Sequence record: PX104378.1 | DNA: 64,000 bases | Strand: one strand, 5' to 3' | Source: a phage | In this document: positions 16,260-57,050 of the stretch, piece after piece | How positions within the stretch are numbered: the first letter of the stretch is position 1 | How the letters are laid out: every line of letters begins with the position of its first letter | Made by a program: the position numbers and the translations under genes | The notes under the pieces: generated by a model | What the model saw: only the letters and a program-made list of their open reading frames with translations | The model's database searches: none | Told to the model about the DNA's origin: nothing

Positions 16260-17072
16260 TCAATCTACGTTAGTTACATAAACTTCTTGCGTATCAGAAG
16301 ACTTACCACCTGAACGATCTAGGCAATAGGTCTTATTCAACAGGACGCAGTTTAAATCATTCCGCTTGATAAAGTCAAGGAGATGATCATTTACCTTTCC
16401 CTTATGATGTGTGACATTACTGATACCAAACTGAAAACCACGCGCCATAATAGATTCTACCCACTGATAGAATTTAATCTCTTCCTCGTCACTCCAAAAC
16501 TTATTATATTCCGCAGAAGTGATAAGGTATGGAGGGTCCAAATAAACGAAATCACCCGGCAAGATCTCGATCTCGTCATATCGTCCAGAAGTAAAATTGA
16601 TTCGACCGTCTTTGTTTTCTTCCTTAAAATTCAGGACACGCTCTACCGCGTTTTCGTTAAAAGTCCGGCGACCAAAATTAGCATTAAATTCGCCCTTCCG
16701 GTTATGGCGGTTAATGTTGCTAAAACTATGTTGAATCAACACAAACAGAGATAGCGGATCTGGATTCTCGTTATACTTCTTGCGGAATGCCATGTAAGCA
16801 TCTTTATCATCACGAGACAAACCATTTTCGGCAATAATCCGCTTGATCGTAGAAACCGGATCAGGACACTCGTCAATCGCTTTGTACGCTTCAATTAAGC
16901 GGTGATCATAGTCATTAGCCAGCACATCCCCTTCGACGTACAGAGACACGCTCAAGCCGCCACAAAAGGCATCAACAAAGCGGTTATAGTGCTTAGGGAA
17001 ATACTTACTAACACCCGGCAATAACTTTTCCTTATTGCCAGTATAGGGAATTAAACCTAATGCTTTCTTCAT
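16260..17072 (-). CDS. dam: DNA adenine methyltransferase Dam
   Basis: YTGNK..FVDAFCGGLSV..DFVYLDPPYLITSAEYNKFWSDEEE matches T4 Dam motifs (FxGxG and DPPY). Confidence 0.9.
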   Translation of the reverse strand: MKKALGLIPYTGNKEKLLPGVSKYFPKHYNRFVDAFCGGLSVSLYVEGDVLANDYDHRLIEAYKAIDECPDPVSTIKRIIAENGLSRDDKDAYMAFRKKYNENPDPLSLFVLIQHSFSNINRHNRKGEFNANFGRRTFNENAVERVLNFKEENKDGRINFTSGRYDEIEILPGDFVYLDPPYLITSAEYNKFWSDEEEIKFYQWVESIMARGFQFGISNVTHHKGKVNDHLLDFIKRNDLNCVLLNKTYCLDRSGGKSSDTQEVYVTNVD

Positions 17073-51700: not shown

Positions 51701-51810
51701 CGGCGGTAACATTCTCTATGTTCCGTGAACTTGTAGATAAACGGTTGAAGGATAATATAGGGAATCCACGCGATCCGAAGAATCCGACACAGAGGAAAAT
51801 TAATGGCTAA
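48724..51810 (+). CDS. 7: gp7 baseplate wedge protein
   Basis: 1028 aa (T4 gp7 1032 aa), translationally coupled between gp6 and gp8. Confidence 0.9.
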   Translation: MIKAPSVTSLTIEKLSANQAYITWDDVGENFFYFVELAETRTRDGEIIPVDELSWVNLGYTADQNWFEDKNLFPEYYYKFRVAVAAEGFEQSKWIETEEFQTFKTNAYNFSMMREFNLANEFIKEKFTYDNREYVKFNTDLIQASLMKEDFVFSPEYANMTNISNYIVVDENFHEIQDHIEKVCTDINRTMLAEMNGVLYLFERFQPIVKVSNDKGQSWKAYKAFNDRIGNPVSRTCVYQSKTTTYVLGYDRIFYGRQASDTRWSADDVRFSDDTITFAKVGDENDLGFDVEVFGVFSRLTGDTTKYAEAMACSDDYLWVGAKDVIRRIRLKNTPVDTVQGSPTFGEKIFDPDVIRVTGNDKAVIQKMDVIDGKLLVFVTGEVKQRYQDPTKPENVVPSDDAGVYLIGSDGLSFQRVFGNTPQEREYIQHGFSNMSTNGDEVFISHYNHHFESILPDPETAAKYELGEAVKYSQEPTYLTDKKIHQTTFRASYDDLRIWELGPQAYYNEADYTWMRRNGVRVWITNDNRPLVVYPEVIYTQEVDTSGILDQNRVNREVYDKGTVTCYLNNVKFEGFKQYASGVMFHKNTGEIIGFYQFNYRVRDQVGVYWKPTNVAFVAELQNQVREVPWVPVHYDREQDPDLRPLLNKMTPDSFLLENENFRKFSEYYLQFLSDGSGTYYNKLKNLIKNKYPREQDAYEYLWSEMNKRNIYADKNKRDAVVRFFESRKSDFYSTKGVEASYKFLFKLLYNEDVEIEVESQAGLEYDIVVSSTNIDEDIVGRTIYTPTGRANVTYLEREYEGGRLRWRVTIHNLIGRFEEGQVIKSEKTAFEGMILVGVRGKELLSSSIDYINRSRSQYTMKIKSALPVSRYANDVMRFVHPVGFGFIGVTLLTMFINSGLSMKHTETIIQSLKNYKFDSGLPSVYPDRVADLDVDGNIKKDPLTGKALYLTSPLIGDEFPVPPEYDQENSELFHGLKASERRFAMSPLFDQSAVTFSMFRELVDKRLKDNIGNPRDPKNPTQRKING

Positions 51811-52798
51811 TGAAAATAGTGTGATCTATCGCTCAATCATTACTAGCAAATTCAGAACAGAAAAACTTATGAACTTCTATAATTCTGTAGGCGATGGAGC
51901 AAATCAAATTACAATTTATGGAACGTTTGGACGTTCGGAGCCGTGGTCAGAAAACGAAAAAGAGGTGGGCTTCGCCCCACCTTATCCGACCGATTCAACG
52001 GCTGGTGTTGTTGACATGTGGACCCATATGATGGGGGCGGTTAAGATTAACAAATCACTTCTTGATGCGGTTATCCCTCGTAAAGATTGGGGTGATACCG
52101 GACAGGATAACCCGCGCACATTCTTTATCAATGATATTGTTGTTGTTAACTCAGCACCATATAACCGAACTGATGTTGGTAGCGGCTGGATGATTTACCG
52201 TGTAACCGATGTTCCTGATCGCGGTTACTGCTCGATTTCAAGCATTGACGCTAAAGTAGAGTGTTTGAAGTTGGGCGGAAAGTGGACACCTACTCATGAA
52301 TCAATTGCGCCACCTGTAGGAAAGGGCGATTCTATTGATATGGGTGATGGATATCGTTGGGAATATCTGTACACAATTCCACCTGATGCGGCGATCAACC
52401 GTTGCACCAATGAACATATTGTTGTTCCCTTCCCAGATGAATTGAGACAAGATCCGGCGCGTTGGGGCTATGATAATGTGATCACCTGGTATAATGACTA
52501 TAATCTGCTTTATCGGCTGAAAGTAGTAACTTTGCGTTTTCAGGCTTATATGGACTCTGCGCAATTCCCAACTACCGCGTTAGTGGGTAATACTGGTTTC
52601 CGTCAGTTAAGCATTATCCTTAACCCATTGGAAAAGAAAGCACGCCCTAGCGATCCAGACGTTAAAGCGGTTAAAGATAAGTACCGACCGCAAGACTTAG
52701 AGCCACACTCAGGCGAAATGATCTACATGGAAAACCGACAACCTATCGTTCGGTCATTAGATCAAACAGAACTTGTTTCTGTATTGTTTGAGTTCTAA
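51803..52798 (+). CDS. 8: gp8 baseplate wedge protein
   Basis: SVIYRSIITSKFRTEKLMNFYNS..FGRSEPWSENEKEVGFAPPYPTDS..CTNEHIVVPFP matches T4 gp8. Confidence 0.95.
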   Translation: MANENSVIYRSIITSKFRTEKLMNFYNSVGDGANQITIYGTFGRSEPWSENEKEVGFAPPYPTDSTAGVVDMWTHMMGAVKINKSLLDAVIPRKDWGDTGQDNPRTFFINDIVVVNSAPYNRTDVGSGWMIYRVTDVPDRGYCSISSIDAKVECLKLGGKWTPTHESIAPPVGKGDSIDMGDGYRWEYLYTIPPDAAINRCTNEHIVVPFPDELRQDPARWGYDNVITWYNDYNLLYRLKVVTLRFQAYMDSAQFPTTALVGNTGFRQLSIILNPLEKKARPSDPDVKAVKDKYRPQDLEPHSGEMIYMENRQPIVRSLDQTELVSVLFEF

Positions 52799-52810
52799 GT
52801 GTATGATTTA

Positions 52811-52845
52811 AAAGCCAATTCGAGAGAGTTGGCTTTTTCTATTTT
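52811..52845 (+). terminator. intrinsic terminator after gp8
   Basis: Hairpin AAAGCCAA(ttcgagagag)TTGGCTTT followed by T-rich run. Confidence 0.65.
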
Positions 52846-52850
52846 GGGGG

Positions 52851-52878
52851 TTGACAATCTTGTCTGATAAGGTATAAT
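52851..52878 (+). promoter_or_regulatory. sigma70-type promoter (TTGACA-N16-TATAAT) driving inserted methyltransferase cassette
   Basis: Consensus -35 and -10 hexamers; downstream leader GCTCACATCTAAACAACGGAGGA nearly identical to the minus-strand PeSL leader at 10764-10792. Confidence 0.7.
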
Positions 52879-52907
52879 GCTCACATCTAAACAACGGAGG
52901 ATAAATT

Positions 52908-53165
52908 ATGGCACGTCGTAAATTTACAGATAATTGTGAAGCAATTCAGGTATCCCCTTGCGGTTGGGATGTGATCGCGAACGGTGAAAAGATCGGAGAG
53001 ATCATCGATCATACTCATTCATCACTAGCCGATTACACCGATGAACTATGGGAGGGTATTAATTGCGCTAACGTAACTAAACGATTCAAGACTATTGATG
53101 AAGCTATACATTTTGTGTATAATCCAACTTTCGGTATGTGGAGTAGTAGAAAATGGCACGCGTAA
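52908..53165 (+). CDS. hypothetical protein (85 aa), first gene of inserted cassette
   Basis: GGAGG RBS; starts ATGGCACG (MAR) like the two following genes; follows sigma70-type promoter. Confidence 0.6.
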   Translation: MARRKFTDNCEAIQVSPCGWDVIANGEKIGEIIDHTHSSLADYTDELWEGINCANVTKRFKTIDEAIHFVYNPTFGMWSSRKWHA

Positions 53166-53482
53166 ATATTAAACTGCATTACACAATGGGTAAACCAAAA
53201 CATCCAATGCATAAAGTGTTTTGGGGATTGCATCTTCAAGAAAAATGGCATGATAACTATTGGTTTTGTGACCATGATAAGAAGTGGCATTCTCAAGATG
53301 AAGTTAATGCGATGATGGAACAGGGTATCAAATTTAATTACTCTAATTATGACCATAACATTACTTGTATTCGAAAATTGAAACGGTTTATTCGAAAGAA
53401 TCCGCAATTTAAAAACTTTGTGTTCTTTATGTCTCATGTTTATTTGGGGCATAGCGTTACCGTCACTGCAAAGGTTAAATAA
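53153..53482 (+). CDS. hypothetical Trp/His-rich protein (109 aa), second gene of inserted cassette
   Basis: Overlaps upstream ORF by 13 nt; starts ATGGCACG. Confidence 0.6.
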   Translation: MARVNIKLHYTMGKPKHPMHKVFWGLHLQEKWHDNYWFCDHDKKWHSQDEVNAMMEQGIKFNYSNYDHNITCIRKLKRFIRKNPQFKNFVFFMSHVYLGHSVTVTAKVK

Positions 53483-54321
53483 TGGCACGACTTTCTAAAC
53501 AAGAACAAAAATTACACGACCGAGCAATGGAGTTGATTAATTCAGATCGTCCATTGACATATGAAGAAAAAGAATTTTGCTATAATAACTATCAGGGCGA
53601 TGGGCTAGGTGGTTCCGGTGCATTCTTTACCCCAGAAGGGCTTGCATGGGATTTTACCATCGATGCGCATTGCACAGGAAAAGTATTGGATCTTTGTGCT
53701 GGGATCGGTCGTTTATCTTTTTGTATGTTACATCGTTGTAAGCCAGAAAAGATCGTATGCGTCGAACTAAATTCAGAATTTGCACGTATAGGTAAACGAC
53801 TATTACCGGAAGCAGAATGGATCACCAGCGATGTATTCGAATTTGAGTCAAACGAAAAATTCGATGTTGTGATCAGCAATCCTCCTTTCGGGAAAATCAA
53901 TACAACCGACACAAAGGATGTATTTGAATATACTGGCGGTGAGTTTGAATTTAAGGTTATGACATTAGGCCAGAAGTTTGCCGATGTAGGTTATTTTATT
54001 GTTCCTGCTGGTTCCGCTGGTTTTGCCTATTCCGGTAGACCTTATTATGACGGGACCATGAAGTCTAATAAATATCTAAAATGGAGCAAACAAACTGGTT
54101 TGGTGACTTATGCCGGATGTGGGATCGATACATCAATCTATCGCGATGAATGGCATAGTACCAACGTTTTAACAGAAGTGGTTGAGGTTCGGTATTACGA
54201 GAAAGAAGCCGTAGAAGCGCCTAAATCGCGTCCTAACGAACAAATAGAAGAAAGTAAGGAGATTACCTTACCGAAACAGGAAAGCGAGTCTGGGACTCTC
54301 TCAGACTTGTTTGACATTTAA
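53482..54321 (+). CDS. SAM-dependent methyltransferase (motif I FxGxG + motif IV NPPF)
   Basis: VLDLCAGIGRLS (SAM-binding) followed ~55 aa later by VISNPPFG; start overlaps upstream stop (TAATG). Confidence 0.8.
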   Translation: MARLSKQEQKLHDRAMELINSDRPLTYEEKEFCYNNYQGDGLGGSGAFFTPEGLAWDFTIDAHCTGKVLDLCAGIGRLSFCMLHRCKPEKIVCVELNSEFARIGKRLLPEAEWITSDVFEFESNEKFDVVISNPPFGKINTTDTKDVFEYTGGEFEFKVMTLGQKFADVGYFIVPAGSAGFAYSGRPYYDGTMKSNKYLKWSKQTGLVTYAGCGIDTSIYRDEWHSTNVLTEVVEVRYYEKEAVEAPKSRPNEQIEESKEITLPKQESESGTLSDLFDI

Positions 54322-54325
54322 TTAT

Positions 54326-54352
54326 AAGCCGTCCTTGTGGGCGGCTTTTTTG
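54326..54352 (+). terminator. intrinsic terminator after methyltransferase cassette
   Basis: Hairpin AAGCCG(tccttgtggg)CGGCTT followed by T6. Confidence 0.6.
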
Positions 54353-54361
54353 TATGTATTT

Positions 54362-54369
54362 TATAAATA
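54362..54369 (+). promoter_or_regulatory. T4-type late promoter TATAAATA for gene 9
   Basis: Exact TATAAATA 28 nt upstream of gp9 ATG. Confidence 0.7.
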
Positions 54370-54396
54370 ATACATCATAACATGAGGAATTAAACA

Positions 54397-55251
54397 ATGG
54401 CACAAGTTCCAAAGAAAAGAATAGACACAGGTACGGTCGGCAATCCATCGACTGGCGATATTTTATATGATGGCGGTAATAAAATTAACGATAACTTTGA
54501 TTCAATATATGACGCATTTGCTGATCAGCGGTTTAAAGACGTAGACCACGGAGTGGGAAGAATGGTTATTCATGCAACCGGATACTATCAGAAGCATCCA
54601 CGTCAAAGCTACGCTGGTTCCGCTGTTGAGATTGGGAGTCTACACGATATCGATACAACTCAAGGCGCACTTATTGCTATTCTACCTAAAGCAAAGGTTG
54701 GCGAGGGTGTTGTATTCATAAATAGTAACGGTAGCCTTTCAACGACGACACCGCTCAATATTCGAACTCAAGCAGGTGATTCTATTAGCGGGTATTCCGG
54801 TGATGCTACAATAACACAACCATTTTCAAAAGTCACTGTTTGGTGTACTGCCGTTGAAGGTAGTCGCGTAACATGGCGATTGGGTATCGAAAGTATGTTT
54901 ACCGATACAACAACGCCATTAGATAAAACAGTTAACGTAACTGGAGTAGCAACAAACGTTGCTATTGCCGCAAAAACAGAATACGTTTCCATCAAATTAT
55001 TAACTACCGCTAGCAATACATCCGGTTCAAAAATGCGTTCAAGTGAAACGCTACTGATGATTGATTCTAAAGCCGGAAAAGTTTATGCGACGGAATATGC
55101 AGTTTTGCAGAAGACAGAAGATGAACTATACACGGTTCGTTATTTCATCGGTTCCGGCGATAAAGTATATGCAGAGTATAAGGCCACTGGCGAAAATATT
55201 CGTTTAGCAGTTAAAGCCGTAGACACTATTAAAATCGGGGTTGCTACATGA
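54397..55251 (+). CDS. 9: gp9 baseplate wedge tail-fibre connector
   Basis: PKKRIDTGTVGNPSTGDILYDGGNKINDNFDSIYDAF..HATGYYQKH matches T4 gp9; TATAAATA 28 nt upstream. Confidence 0.9.
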   Translation: MAQVPKKRIDTGTVGNPSTGDILYDGGNKINDNFDSIYDAFADQRFKDVDHGVGRMVIHATGYYQKHPRQSYAGSAVEIGSLHDIDTTQGALIAILPKAKVGEGVVFINSNGSLSTTTPLNIRTQAGDSISGYSGDATITQPFSKVTVWCTAVEGSRVTWRLGIESMFTDTTTPLDKTVNVTGVATNVAIAAKTEYVSIKLLTTASNTSGSKMRSSETLLMIDSKAGKVYATEYAVLQKTEDELYTVRYFIGSGDKVYAEYKATGENIRLAVKAVDTIKIGVAT

Positions 55252-57050
55252 AACAATTAATTAATATCGGTAACGTTGTTGATGACGGTACAGGTGATTA
55301 TCTAAGAAAAGGTGGTCAAAAGATTAATGACAACTTTTCTGAACTTTACACTAAGCTGGGGGATGGTGATATCCCTCATGCATCCGGCGCGTGGAAAACT
55401 CACACACAACCAGTATTAAAACCAAATTTTGGTGATGCATGGGCGATTAATACAACTAACAACGCTGTTTCTGTTGAATTGCCTAAAGGAAGCGCGAGTG
55501 ATTATAATAAAACAATTAAACTTCGTGATGTTTGGCGCTCATGGGCTGCACATAACGTAACATTGAAGCCAGCACAAGGTGATACCATTAAGGGATCTCC
55601 AATCGACCGTGAGTTGTATAAAGATTTCATGGATGTTGAATTGGTTTATTGTGCGCCTGGACGTTGGGAATATGTCGAGAATAAACGAGTAGATACTATC
55701 ACCACTTCCGATTTAAGCACAGTCGCTAAGGAAGTTTATATTGCAACCGAAGGACAAACAGACTTCCCCAATGTGTTTGGTTCCAATACTTACAATATTC
55801 GAAATGTTGAAGTGTATTATCGCGGTAACTTGCTTTATTATGGCAAGGATTTAACCGATGATTCTAACTATGGTTCAATCGGTGAAAACGGTGATATTGT
55901 TCCGCTGGACGGTAAAAGCATTAAATTACGCTTCCCTTGTTCGGCTGGTGATACCATTCAAATCATCACTTATATGGACGGTATCGCATCATTCCGGTCA
56001 AGCTATATTACTCATACAATCCGCGTTTATGAAACAGGAATGACCACTTTGGAATCCATCCCCGGTGAAGTTTGGGTTGGTGAACTAGCTAATAAGAAAG
56101 AATTTACTAATGCTGAATTAGGCGTAAGTAAGCGAGATCTTATTAATCCAAATTCATTTGAATTGCTGATTAACGGTACACAAATGATTAAAGCGGGTGA
56201 TGCGGATTTACCTTCCTTTATTTGTGAAGGTGCTGACGGTGAAACGGAAGAAACCTGCGTACTTGCTGGCGGTCAATGGGTGGAATCTGGGGAAGATTAT
56301 TCATTGATGTTCGACGAAAACAGCGTGGTGACTGGTATTAAATTATCTAAAGCACTAGATAACCGAGACACTATCACAATTCGCTGGTTTAATAATGATA
56401 TCGGAACATTAATGGAATGGGACGGTGTAGGCGGTATTAAAGAAAAAGCAGATAAAATCTATCTTAATAACGAAGATGAAGTTACTCTGACAAATCGAAT
56501 TGAATATACCGATTTCCAGAATCCAAGCCAAGCGACTAAACGCCCAATGGAAGATTATACAGGTCGTGTGATGGATATCTATTCCATATTCGATATTTTC
56601 TATCCTATAGGCACAATTTATGAAAATGCGCATAACCCAGCTAACCCAGCGACCTATATGGGATTTGGTACATGGGTACGTTATGCAGAAAAAGAATTTT
56701 TAGTTGGTTGGTCTTCTGACGCAAGCGATCAAAACTTCGCACTAAACAACAACGATCTTGATACACATGGTCAACCTACACACACCGCAGGTGGTAACGG
56801 TGGTGATGTTGCATACCAGATCAAGAAAAATATGATTCCTGAATTACAGAGCGACGATCGAGTTCTTGTAAAAGATGATAACGGAAATATTATTATCGGT
56901 GGTTGTCAGGTAGACCCTGATGCAGTAGGTCCAGCGTTTACCAAATATCGCGAAGATAATGTTAAAGTTAATCAGGGAAATACCGATCCATCAATGATTG
57001 GTATTCTTCCTCCATACAGAACTGTCTATCGTTGGCTAAGGGTAGGTTAA
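55248..57050 (+). CDS. 10: gp10 baseplate wedge protein
   Basis: 600 aa (T4 602), N-terminal GDYLRKGGQKINDNF parallels gp9/gp10 shared motif; synteny. Confidence 0.9.
   Translation: MKQLINIGNVVDDGTGDYLRKGGQKINDNFSELYTKLGDGDIPHASGAWKTHTQPVLKPNFGDAWAINTTNNAVSVELPKGSASDYNKTIKLRDVWRSWAAHNVTLKPAQGDTIKGSPIDRELYKDFMDVELVYCAPGRWEYVENKRVDTITTSDLSTVAKEVYIATEGQTDFPNVFGSNTYNIRNVEVYYRGNLLYYGKDLTDDSNYGSIGENGDIVPLDGKSIKLRFPCSAGDTIQIITYMDGIASFRSSYITHTIRVYETGMTTLESIPGEVWVGELANKKEFTNAELGVSKRDLINPNSFELLINGTQMIKAGDADLPSFICEGADGETEETCVLAGGQWVESGEDYSLMFDENSVVTGIKLSKALDNRDTITIRWFNNDIGTLMEWDGVGGIKEKADKIYLNNEDEVTLTNRIEYTDFQNPSQATKRPMEDYTGRVMDIYSIFDIFYPIGTIYENAHNPANPATYMGFGTWVRYAEKEFLVGWSSDASDQNFALNNNDLDTHGQPTHTAGGNGGDVAYQIKKNMIPELQSDDRVLVKDDNGNIIIGGCQVDPDAVGPAFTKYREDNVKVNQGNTDPSMIGILPPYRTVYRWLRVG

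Follow-up and report, generated by a model that had tools for sequence, protein, structure and literature searches.

The window analysed here, a stretch of 64,000 nucleotides (nt) of phage DNA (sequence record PX104378.1), belongs to a Krischvirus, an RB49-like phage, at about 97% nucleotide identity. Between its baseplate genes 8 and 9 (positions 52,811 to 54,352) lies a cassette of three overlapping open reading frames (ORFs). The last of them encodes a methyltransferase of 279 amino acids (aa), and this enzyme is our main subject. Judging from its sequence and its genomic setting, we suggest that it is an orphan DNA methyltransferase which is made early, is tethered to the sliding clamp gp45 by its C-terminus and is coupled to replication in this way, with a role that is probably anti-restriction. 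We give this reading as a whole a probability of roughly 0.6. The cassette had been outlined in a first-pass annotation of the same DNA, and all the features that it listed were confirmed, none of them more than a few bases from its stated position (Table 1).

Table 1. Features of the gene 8/gene 9 junction and of the methyltransferase (window coordinates; PeSL, promoter-early stem-loop; TRD, target-recognition domain)
Feature	Position	Strand	Basis or remark
Gene 8, baseplate wedge subunit (left flank)	51803..52798	+	Pfam PF09215 Phage-Gp8, E=1.8e-143; phrog_977
PeSL stem-loop, predicted intrinsic terminator, directly after gp8 stop	52810..52845	+	12-bp stem 52810-52837, then T-run; terminator scan
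PeSL sigma-70 promoter TTGACA-N16-TATAAT	52851..52878	+	12/12 consensus
Conserved PeSL leader	52879..52907	+	Shine-Dalgarno GGAGG 52896-52900
85-aa ORFan, variable cargo	52908..53165	+	ORF; phrog_16603
109-aa Trp/His-rich ORFan, variable cargo	53153..53482	+	13-nt overlap with 85-aa ORF; phrog_12630
Methyltransferase ORF, 279 aa	53482..54321	+	TAATG (1-nt) overlap with 109-aa ORF
Catalytic core, aa 1-237	53482..54192	+	N-terminal helices and seven-stranded Rossmann fold, no separate TRD
Motif X GAFFTP (aa 46-51)	53617-53634	+	methyltransferase
Motif I LDLCAGIG (LCAGIG = aa 71-76)	53686-53709	+	methyltransferase
Motif IV NPPF (aa 133-136)	53878-53889	+	methyltransferase
Acidic, disordered, length-variable linker, aa 238-271	54193..54294	+	model, alignment
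C-terminal peptide TLSDLFDI, candidate gp45-binding motif	54295..54318	+	likeness to gp43 tail
Predicted GC-rich intrinsic terminator closing the early cassette	54326..54352 (hairpin 54326-54347)	+	9-bp stem, 6 GC pairs, T-run
T4-type late promoter TATAAATA of gene 9	54362..54369	+	exact match, 27 nt before gp9 start
Gene 9, baseplate wedge/tail-fibre connector (right flank)	54397..55251	+	Pfam T4_gp9_10_N, E=1.4e-40; phrog_967
Dam	16260-17072	-	DPPY motif

The cassette and its distribution

In T4, as the first-pass annotation had stated, gene 8 is followed directly by gene 9: the former ends at 87155 and the latter starts at 87219, 63 nt further on. When window positions 51800-55300 (3,501 nt) are compared with other genomes at the nucleotide level (distant blastn), the gp8 and gp9 genes of about 1380 other Straboviridae records align onto some 1.97 kb with no insert, and the full 3.5 kb is spanned only by about 60 Krischvirus records. 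About 59 Krischvirus genomes, GEC-3S, RB49 and phi1 among them, match the 3.5 kb round the cassette at 95-97% identity. The cassette is present in all of these records and is not peculiar to the window phage. The first-pass annotation had reckoned with the possibility that all close relatives carry the same genes in a housekeeping role; the relatives do carry them, and no housekeeping function is known.

The frame is unchanged in metagenomic relatives, with gp8, terminator, TTGACA promoter, cargo, terminator, TATAAATA and gp9 in succession. In three of them (loci L017-L019, gp8 88% identical) the methyltransferase is the sole cargo at the junction, and in another (L020, gp8 81% identical) the cargo consists of an unrelated 154-aa ORF and the methyltransferase. 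Hairpins equivalent to the closing terminator and the same layout of the gene 9 late promoter are found in both L017 and L020. The clade in which the methyltransferase is the conserved cargo of the gp8/gp9 junction is broader than the genus, and the slot upstream of the methyltransferase holds no small ORF, one (the unrelated 154-aa ORF) or two.

These comparisons bear on the suggestion of the first-pass annotation that the three genes form a mobile accessory module. An insertion relative to T4 it is. The three genes are not a coherent unit, since the slot varies and the pair of small ORFs is separable, and a recently mobile three-gene unit is ruled out by fixation in the genus (about 59 Krischvirus records) together with the modular upstream slot. 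Base composition gives no sign of a recent foreign origin for the methyltransferase: its GC content is about 0.40 and genome-like, and the small ORFs alone dip, to about 0.34-0.35.

No cognate endonuclease stands beside the methyltransferase. Its neighbours are gp8, gp9 and the 85-aa and 109-aa proteins, in which the first-pass annotation had recognized no motif and which indeed have no match in Pfam, NCBIfam or PADLOC. The methyltransferase is an orphan. A classical restriction-modification system is ruled out, there being no nuclease.

The regulatory frame

The terminator, promoter, leader and Shine-Dalgarno sequence in front of the cassette can be recognized, by sequence, as an element that has been described before, the promoter-early stem-loop (PeSL) of RB49 and phi1. 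In PeSLs of these phages the stem-loops terminate transcription and the promoters are very strong (Arbiol et al. 2010, PMC2839356). The promoters were active in lacZ fusions, assayed for PeSLs 193/192 and 206/205, and a few PeSLs were located in virion modules beside genes of unknown function (PMC2839356). Neither in this paper nor in that of Comeau et al. (2014, PMC4122927) is the gp8/gp9 locus or the methyltransferase mentioned (0 occurrences). The GEC-3S record already annotates the PeSL terminator and promoter (-35/-10) after gp8, as well as the closing terminator. The cassette, then, is already annotated and its regulatory frame already described.

The likeness to PeSLs extends over the succession of a stop codon, an AT-rich tract, a stem-loop terminator, a near-perfect TTGACA-N16/17-TATAAT, a conserved leader, a Shine-Dalgarno sequence and the ATG of an ORFan (PMC2839356, PMC4122927). 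Here, a stem-loop that is a predicted terminator follows the gp8 stop, the promoter agrees with the consensus at 12 of 12 positions, GGAGG and the ATG of the 85-aa ORFan come next, and similar copies are dispersed over the window. There are two differences. The downstream border is a plain terminator and a late promoter, not a second PeSL, and the cargo is fixed in the genus, not varying among close relatives.

Between 51.5 and 55.5 kb the promoter is the sole perfect match to TTGACA-N16-TATAAT. The longer promoter-plus-leader pattern TTGACA-N16-TATAATG occurs four times in the window at no more than one mismatch, against 0.28 expected. The first-pass annotation had pointed to a consensus early promoter with a leader like those of minus-strand cassettes, and this was borne out: the gp8-proximal copy can be aligned with the minus-strand copies from the hairpin through the -35 and -10 boxes and the leader to the Shine-Dalgarno sequence. 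Cassettes at 10.8, 13.3 and 21.6 kb entered the alignment, and those at 10.8 kb and at 21.6 kb share the leader elements TATAATGCTCACATC..AAAC..GGAG with this PeSL. Its hairpin also aligns with the gp8/methyltransferase junctions of L017 and L020.

By word scan, there is no TATAAATA box inside or before the cassette. In the whole window this word occurs four times, against 6.8 expected from shuffles; it is not over-represented, and therefore its position alone is meaningful. Two of the four occurrences (43553 and 54362) stand just 5' of plus-strand late genes. With predicted terminators on both sides, which the first-pass annotation had also noted, and no TATAAATA in or before it, the cassette would therefore be insulated from late transcription, and gp9 would have a late promoter of its own. 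Early timing of the cassette transcript is suggested by the promoter consensus and by the other PeSLs.

The methyltransferase

By the order of its motifs (X, I, IV), the enzyme can be classed as a gamma-class amino-methyltransferase, and one that has no target-recognition domain (TRD). It matches the Pfam families PF05175 MTS (39.2 bits, cut-off 23) and PF07669 Eco57I (28.9 bits, cut-off 25.3), with PF02384 N6_Mtase, at 16.9 bits, below its cut-off of 20.4. The match to PHROG 3820, "DNA methyltransferase", has E=1e-116. In an alignment of 29 homologues, none departs from GAFFTP in motif X, LCAGIG in motif I or NPPFG in motif IV. An AlphaFold model with a pLDDT (predicted local distance difference test) score of 83.5 consists of three N-terminal helices and a single seven-stranded Rossmann domain, residues 137-237 completing the fold. 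The model contains no separate TRD and the locus has no HsdS-like neighbour. We infer that DNA is the substrate and adenine-N6 the target atom.

The known gamma-class N6-adenine DNA methyltransferases (M.TaqI, Eco57I-like enzymes, Type I HsdM, lmo1582/YtxK-like proteins) differ from the phage enzyme in that the latter has neither TRD nor HsdS partner. In size it is nearer to minimal enzymes of the METTL5 type. The first-pass annotation was right that this is a second methyltransferase, unrelated to the Dam of the same phage: a gamma-class order of motifs stands against DPPY in Dam. Duplication of Dam is ruled out, as the two belong to different methyltransferase classes. T4 Dam, an alpha-class GATC methyltransferase of which the window contains a copy, resembles our enzyme in being a phage-encoded orphan adenine methyltransferase. 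It differs in the DPPY motif, in its alpha order and in its locus, and the window Dam ends ...QEVYVTNVD, which is not a clamp-like C-terminus.

At 50% identity the family to which the enzyme belongs falls into 711 clusters, of which 173 have E<=1e-30, and it has members in 287 phage records. RB43 and Phynn carry the gene within their replication cluster, flanked by those of the gp41 helicase and the gp61.1/gp61 primase. KP27-like and Karam-like phages, phages of Aeromonas, Sinorhizobium and Dickeya and a Yersinia jumbo phage are further hosts, and enterobacterial chromosomes carry copies at the edges of prophages or islands.

A candidate clamp-binding peptide at the C-terminus

The methyltransferase ends ...ESGTLSDLFDI and the DNA polymerase of RB49, gp43, ends ...KVASLTDLFDI. 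Six of the last seven residues are identical, and in both proteins they stand at the extreme C-terminus. The candidate clamp peptide of the methyltransferase, ESESGTLSDLFDI, fits the consensus of 43 gp43 C-termini from T4-type phages, A[ST]LxD[LMIF]F[DG][FI]. In the Providencia phage PSTCR6, whose gp43 ends ASLSDLFDI, the last seven residues are those of the methyltransferase. The window contains 208 ORFs of 50 aa or more. Just two of their products, the methyltransferase and gp55, have [ST]Lx(1-2)[LFM][FY] within their last 12 residues, and the gp43 heptapeptide is matched next best at 3 of 7 residues.

What such a peptide may do is known from T4. Residues 889-EKASLDFLFG-898 of T4 gp43 mediate binding to the gp45 clamp (PMC6212786, PMC2988020), and gp55 and gp33 bear interchangeable versions of this epitope after variable unstructured linkers (PMC2988020). 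The gp45-binding loop of T4 ligase was found by its likeness to the gp43 tail and was confirmed by isothermal titration calorimetry and a crystal structure (PMC6212786). Like these clients of gp45 (gp43, gp55, gp33 and DNA ligase), the methyltransferase has a hydrophobic and acidic peptide, in its case at the extreme C-terminus, behind a variable unstructured linker. Residues 251-279 are disordered in the model (pLDDT <50). The linker is rich in insertions and deletions and cannot be aligned among homologues, and the terminal peptide is retained: homologues of 65-70% identity end TLTDLFDI, SLSMFDI and TLDFVDFSEI. In the papers searched no methyltransferase is listed among the gp45 clients. The resemblance suggests that the methyltransferase tail, too, binds gp45.

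The similarity is also seen in DNA. The last 18 nt of gp43, GACCTGTTTGACATTTAA (RB49, L012 7794-7811), and of the methyltransferase gene, GACTTGTTTGACATTTAA (window 54304-54321), are identical at 17 of 18 positions. The near-identity would fit an old graft of the 3' end of gp43, and it may be the scar left when the tail was acquired.

Strict co-variation of the tail with gp43 of the same phage is not a general rule. It holds in Krischvirus, is approximate in the phage of sample ERZ27260015, where the methyltransferase ends SLSMFDI and a gp43 fragment recovered from that sample ends SLSDLFDF, and fails in RB43 and Phynn. In the clade of RB43, KP27 and Phynn there is a different conserved tail, [LN]FTF[RT]IE, which follows a Pro/Glu-rich linker (L013 20046-20780 for RB43; L014 20001-20783 for Phynn). 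We do not claim clamp binding for the FTF[RT]IE tail.

Tails across the family

The survey of tails covered 247 full-length members of the family, including 150 distant representatives (50% identity). Tails of at least eight residues are present in 120 of the 247. The strict motif for binding to the bacterial beta clamp, Q[LQ]xLF or QLxLx[LF], occurs in the last ten residues of 18 members, with endings such as QLSLFA, QLTLF, QLALF and QLDLFGGAR. Five tails are gp43-like and nine are of the FxFxIE type. Another 38 have LF, FL or LL in their last ten residues, including the relaxed forms QISLF, QFSLF, QVQLF and ADLFA, and 50 are of other types. All 18 strict cases fall in the distant representatives (18/150). 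The background is given by the ORFs of at least 100 aa from the fetched loci: one of 596 has the strict motif, and that one is a family member, which leaves 0/595. A member with a QLSLFA tail adjoins parA, parB and a relaxase gene on a plasmid-like contig. The gene of another tailed member is part of a phage replication module, which also encodes a primase-polymerase and two more DNA methyltransferases.

Thus the type of terminal motif appears to follow the type of clamp that is available to the element. If so, the tail should bind the clamp, because otherwise the correspondence would be hard to explain, and DNA would be implied as the substrate. A more general statement can be made, at about even odds. 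The family, with about 700 clusters at 50% identity, may be a widespread group of minimal TRD-less adenine DNA methyltransferases in phages, prophages and plasmids that has repeatedly gained a C-terminal peptide suited to the clamp of the replisome in use: QLxLF where this is the beta clamp of the host, and the gp43-type [ST]LxD[LM]FD[IF] where it is a T4-type gp45.

Proposed function

Krischvirus genomes have no genes for the synthesis of hydroxymethylcytosine (hmC) and its glucosylation as found in T4 (PMC13390438), and these phages must survive restriction by other means. The following sequence of events can be suggested. The PeSL, with its terminator and strong sigma-70 early promoter, would drive an insulated early transcript within the late baseplate operon, from which the enzyme would be synthesized early. 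The tail would dock the enzyme on gp45 trimers loaded at replication forks and left behind on the new duplex. Because the enzyme has no TRD, the clamp plausibly supplies DNA affinity and one-dimensional tracking in its place. Adenines in nascent phage DNA would then be methylated as replication proceeds, and this methylation would shield the phage DNA, in the cell being infected and again in the next infection, from restriction or other defences that are sensitive to methylation. Sequence evidence stands behind early synthesis and docking; the later steps are inferred.

Several observations weigh against this proposal. The DNA of TB34, a Krischvirus that carries the cassette, contains canonical cytosines, and high-performance liquid chromatography with mass spectrometry revealed no detectable modified nucleosides in it (PMC13390438). 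Given this result, dense or non-specific methylation of packaged Krischvirus DNA is unlikely; we assume that sparse, site-specific N6-methyladenine would probably escape the assay. Our literature search found no binding, activity or methylome data for any member of the family. Promoter activity and timing at gp8/gp9 rest on the consensus and on other PeSLs. About half of the surveyed members (127 of 247) are tail-less, including those of Aeromonas T4-like phages and the enterobacterial prophage copies. The [LN]FTF[RT]IE tail is unlike the tails of gp43, gp33 or gp55 of its own phage. Finally, METTL5 and PH1948 rank second and third among the structural neighbours of the model, and the fold alone cannot split DNA from rRNA enzymes that make N6-methyladenine.

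TB34 poses a puzzle of its own. Together with phage SAP it matches window positions 51800-55300 at 95.5%, and both phages carry the cassette. The two are 99.96% identical to each other, yet they are reported to differ completely in cytosine modification: TB34 has none, and the DNA of SAP contains hmC and glucosyl-hmC for which its genes offer no explanation (PMC13390438). The cytosine-modification puzzle is unrelated to the methyltransferase cassette.

Alternative explanations

The enzyme could be an orphan anti-restriction DNA methyltransferase that diffuses freely, its likeness to gp43 being a by-product, for instance a remnant of illegitimate recombination with the 3' end of gp43. The 17 identical nucleotides out of 18 could well be a recombination scar, half of the family works without a tail, and the tail in the RB43 clade differs from that of its gp43. 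We nevertheless consider this explanation unlikely. The tail is kept in homologues of 65-70% identity though the linker decays, and many lineages have independently gained a motif that suits their own kind of clamp, beta or gp45, at 18/150 against a background of 0/595.

If the substrate were RNA or protein, the enzyme might serve host takeover in the manner of HemK/PrmC, RsmC or METTL5. The first-pass annotation had kept a HemK-like protein or rRNA methyltransferase as an option, and several GenBank records use the label "release factor glutamine methyltransferase" (PrmC). This label is unsupported because the NCBIfam model of PrmC, TIGR03534, scores 37 bits against a cut-off of 199.1, over residues 64-137 only, and RsmC scores 31 bits against 295; both cover just the core that binds S-adenosylmethionine, from about residue 60. 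The best matches in the defence library PADLOC, by comparison, are the mad2 methyltransferase of MADS (5e-16) and Type II DNA methyltransferases, and these alignments begin at residue 44-46, where motif X lies. Motif X GAFFTP and the N-terminal helices align with DNA methyltransferases, and the viral structural neighbours of the model are DNA methylase modules. Clamp-binding tails would be sensible on DNA only, and the genes keep company with replication genes, other DNA methyltransferases and plasmid par loci. An RNA or protein substrate is thus disfavoured, and we hold it to be very improbable.

Perhaps all three genes of the cassette encode one functional complex, in which the 85-aa and 109-aa proteins are specificity or regulatory subunits of a methyltransferase that has no TRD. 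The ORFs are translationally coupled through overlaps of 13 nt and 1 nt, they share the start ATGGCACG (Met-Ala-Arg), and all three are kept in every Krischvirus record. The partnership breaks down outside the genus: L017 has the methyltransferase alone, L020 has the unrelated 154-aa ORF instead, the homologues in RB43, Phynn and prophages have neither small ORF, and in rV5-like phages the pair occurs with no methyltransferase. Even within the genus, the 85-aa gene of RB49 is annotated as two ORFs in different frames. A complex therefore has little to recommend it, and we treat the 85-aa and 109-aa ORFs as interchangeable ORFan passengers of the PeSL slot, not as subunits.

Hardly credible, in our view, is a mainly regulatory tail that competes with gp43, gp55 and gp33 for gp45 and so tunes replication or the late-transcription switch, methylation being secondary: the epitope is the same as in the late-transcription factors, whose tails are interchangeable (PMC2988020), and the promoter is early and of a very strong type, but the catalytic motifs are strictly invariant in the family and the same core has acquired beta-clamp motifs in plasmids and in other phages, where a gp55/gp33 system is lacking.

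Relation to known systems

The clamp-tethered methyltransferase proposed here would have a parallel in DNMT1, which is brought to newly replicated DNA by a short motif that binds the clamp PCNA (PMC9690074); in the phage enzyme the motif is a candidate. DNMT1 is a large maintenance enzyme that methylates cytosine at C5, and its PIP (PCNA-interacting protein) box is internal. The phage enzyme, by contrast, has about 240 aa, is of the N6-adenine type, bears its motif at the C-terminus and presumably acts de novo.

Closer to phages are M.EcoGIX and M.BceJIII, single-strand-specific methyltransferases associated with plasmid replication (Fomenkov et al. 2020, PMC7736820). They, too, are orphan adenine methyltransferases of mobile elements, coupled to replication and read as anti-restriction (PMC7736820); in our case the coupling is a proposal. 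The difference is that they are coupled to DNA polymerase I and have no reported clamp motif, and the likeness to the phage enzyme is one of description only. Fomenkov et al. speculated on a clamp intermediary that links M.EcoGIX and M.BceJIII to polymerase I (PMC7736820).

In our literature search, whose coverage was incomplete so that an earlier description is possible, no clamp-binding bacterial or phage methyltransferase was reported. A paper on an "unknown DNA modification" in KP15 and KP27 is silent on the methyltransferase gene. The gp43-type tail, and its beta-clamp counterparts in the family, are newly remarked here.

If the proposal is correct, a methyltransferase that rides on the clamp would explain how nascent DNA is protected in a very fast replicator, with the clamp standing in for a DNA-recognition domain and coupling protective methylation to replication. 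DNA methylation would join the list of clients of gp45, the "toolbelt", and of the beta clamp. As far as our searches show, DNMT1-PCNA would thereby gain its first counterpart in bacteria or phages, a case of convergent evolution. The rule of core, linker and clamp motif could serve to spot replication-coupled methyltransferases in mobile elements by sequence, and mis-annotations as PrmC in the genomes of therapeutic phages would be corrected.

The two small ORFs

The 85-aa ORF was found in 62 phage records, of Krischvirus and of three rV5-like phages, and is absent from L017 and L020. The 109-aa protein has only five clusters among 5.8 billion proteins. It has two alleles in Krischvirus, one at no less than 95% identity (20 records) and one at about 72% (most others). 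An AlphaFold2 model of it, built on an alignment of six sequences, reaches a pLDDT of 58 and is not interpretable. In the rV5-like phages, homologues of the two ORFs adjoin each other, with about 69% identity for the 109-aa protein. This suggests that a two-gene ORFan module has been exchanged across families, between Krischvirus and rV5-like coliphages. In one rV5-like (Vequintavirus-type) coliphage, Escherichia phage HMD-6 (L022 3001-3575), a hairpin and a TTGACA-N17 promoter lie upstream of the pair.

In RB49 the two ORFs annotated in place of the 85-aa gene are RB49p140 and p141, and the two halves match in different reading frames. This region (L001 2609-2855, RB49 73902-74148) is equivalent to window positions 52908-53165, and the RB49 match to the 3,501-nt query is 3,490 nt long, that is, 11 nt shorter. 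Either the gene is truly disrupted in RB49 or the 2003 record contains a sequencing error.

Further observations

The short tail is replaced in some family members by about 140 additional C-terminal residues, as in BFVD A0A384ZXJ6 from Dickeya phage JA29 and in P0125 and P0129 (389-395 aa). Others, of 320-476 aa, have a long linker and still end QLSLF or QLTLF.

The polymerase gene of the Krischvirus-like contig in sample ERZ27260015 (L026 879-4020) is split into ORFs of 496 aa and 339 aa with a 55-aa ORF between them, which is a further case of the plasticity that Arbiol et al. noted at the g43 locus.

The RB43 record starts the methyltransferase gene too far downstream (MDLVESDK...). Contigs of Salmonella enterica (L007-L010) carry a tail-less homologue, 59% identical, at the chromosomal edge of what appears to be an integrated T7-like prophage. 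This prophage is marked by a T7 tail fibre and a T7-type terminase, and the homologue adjoins mipA and gapA.

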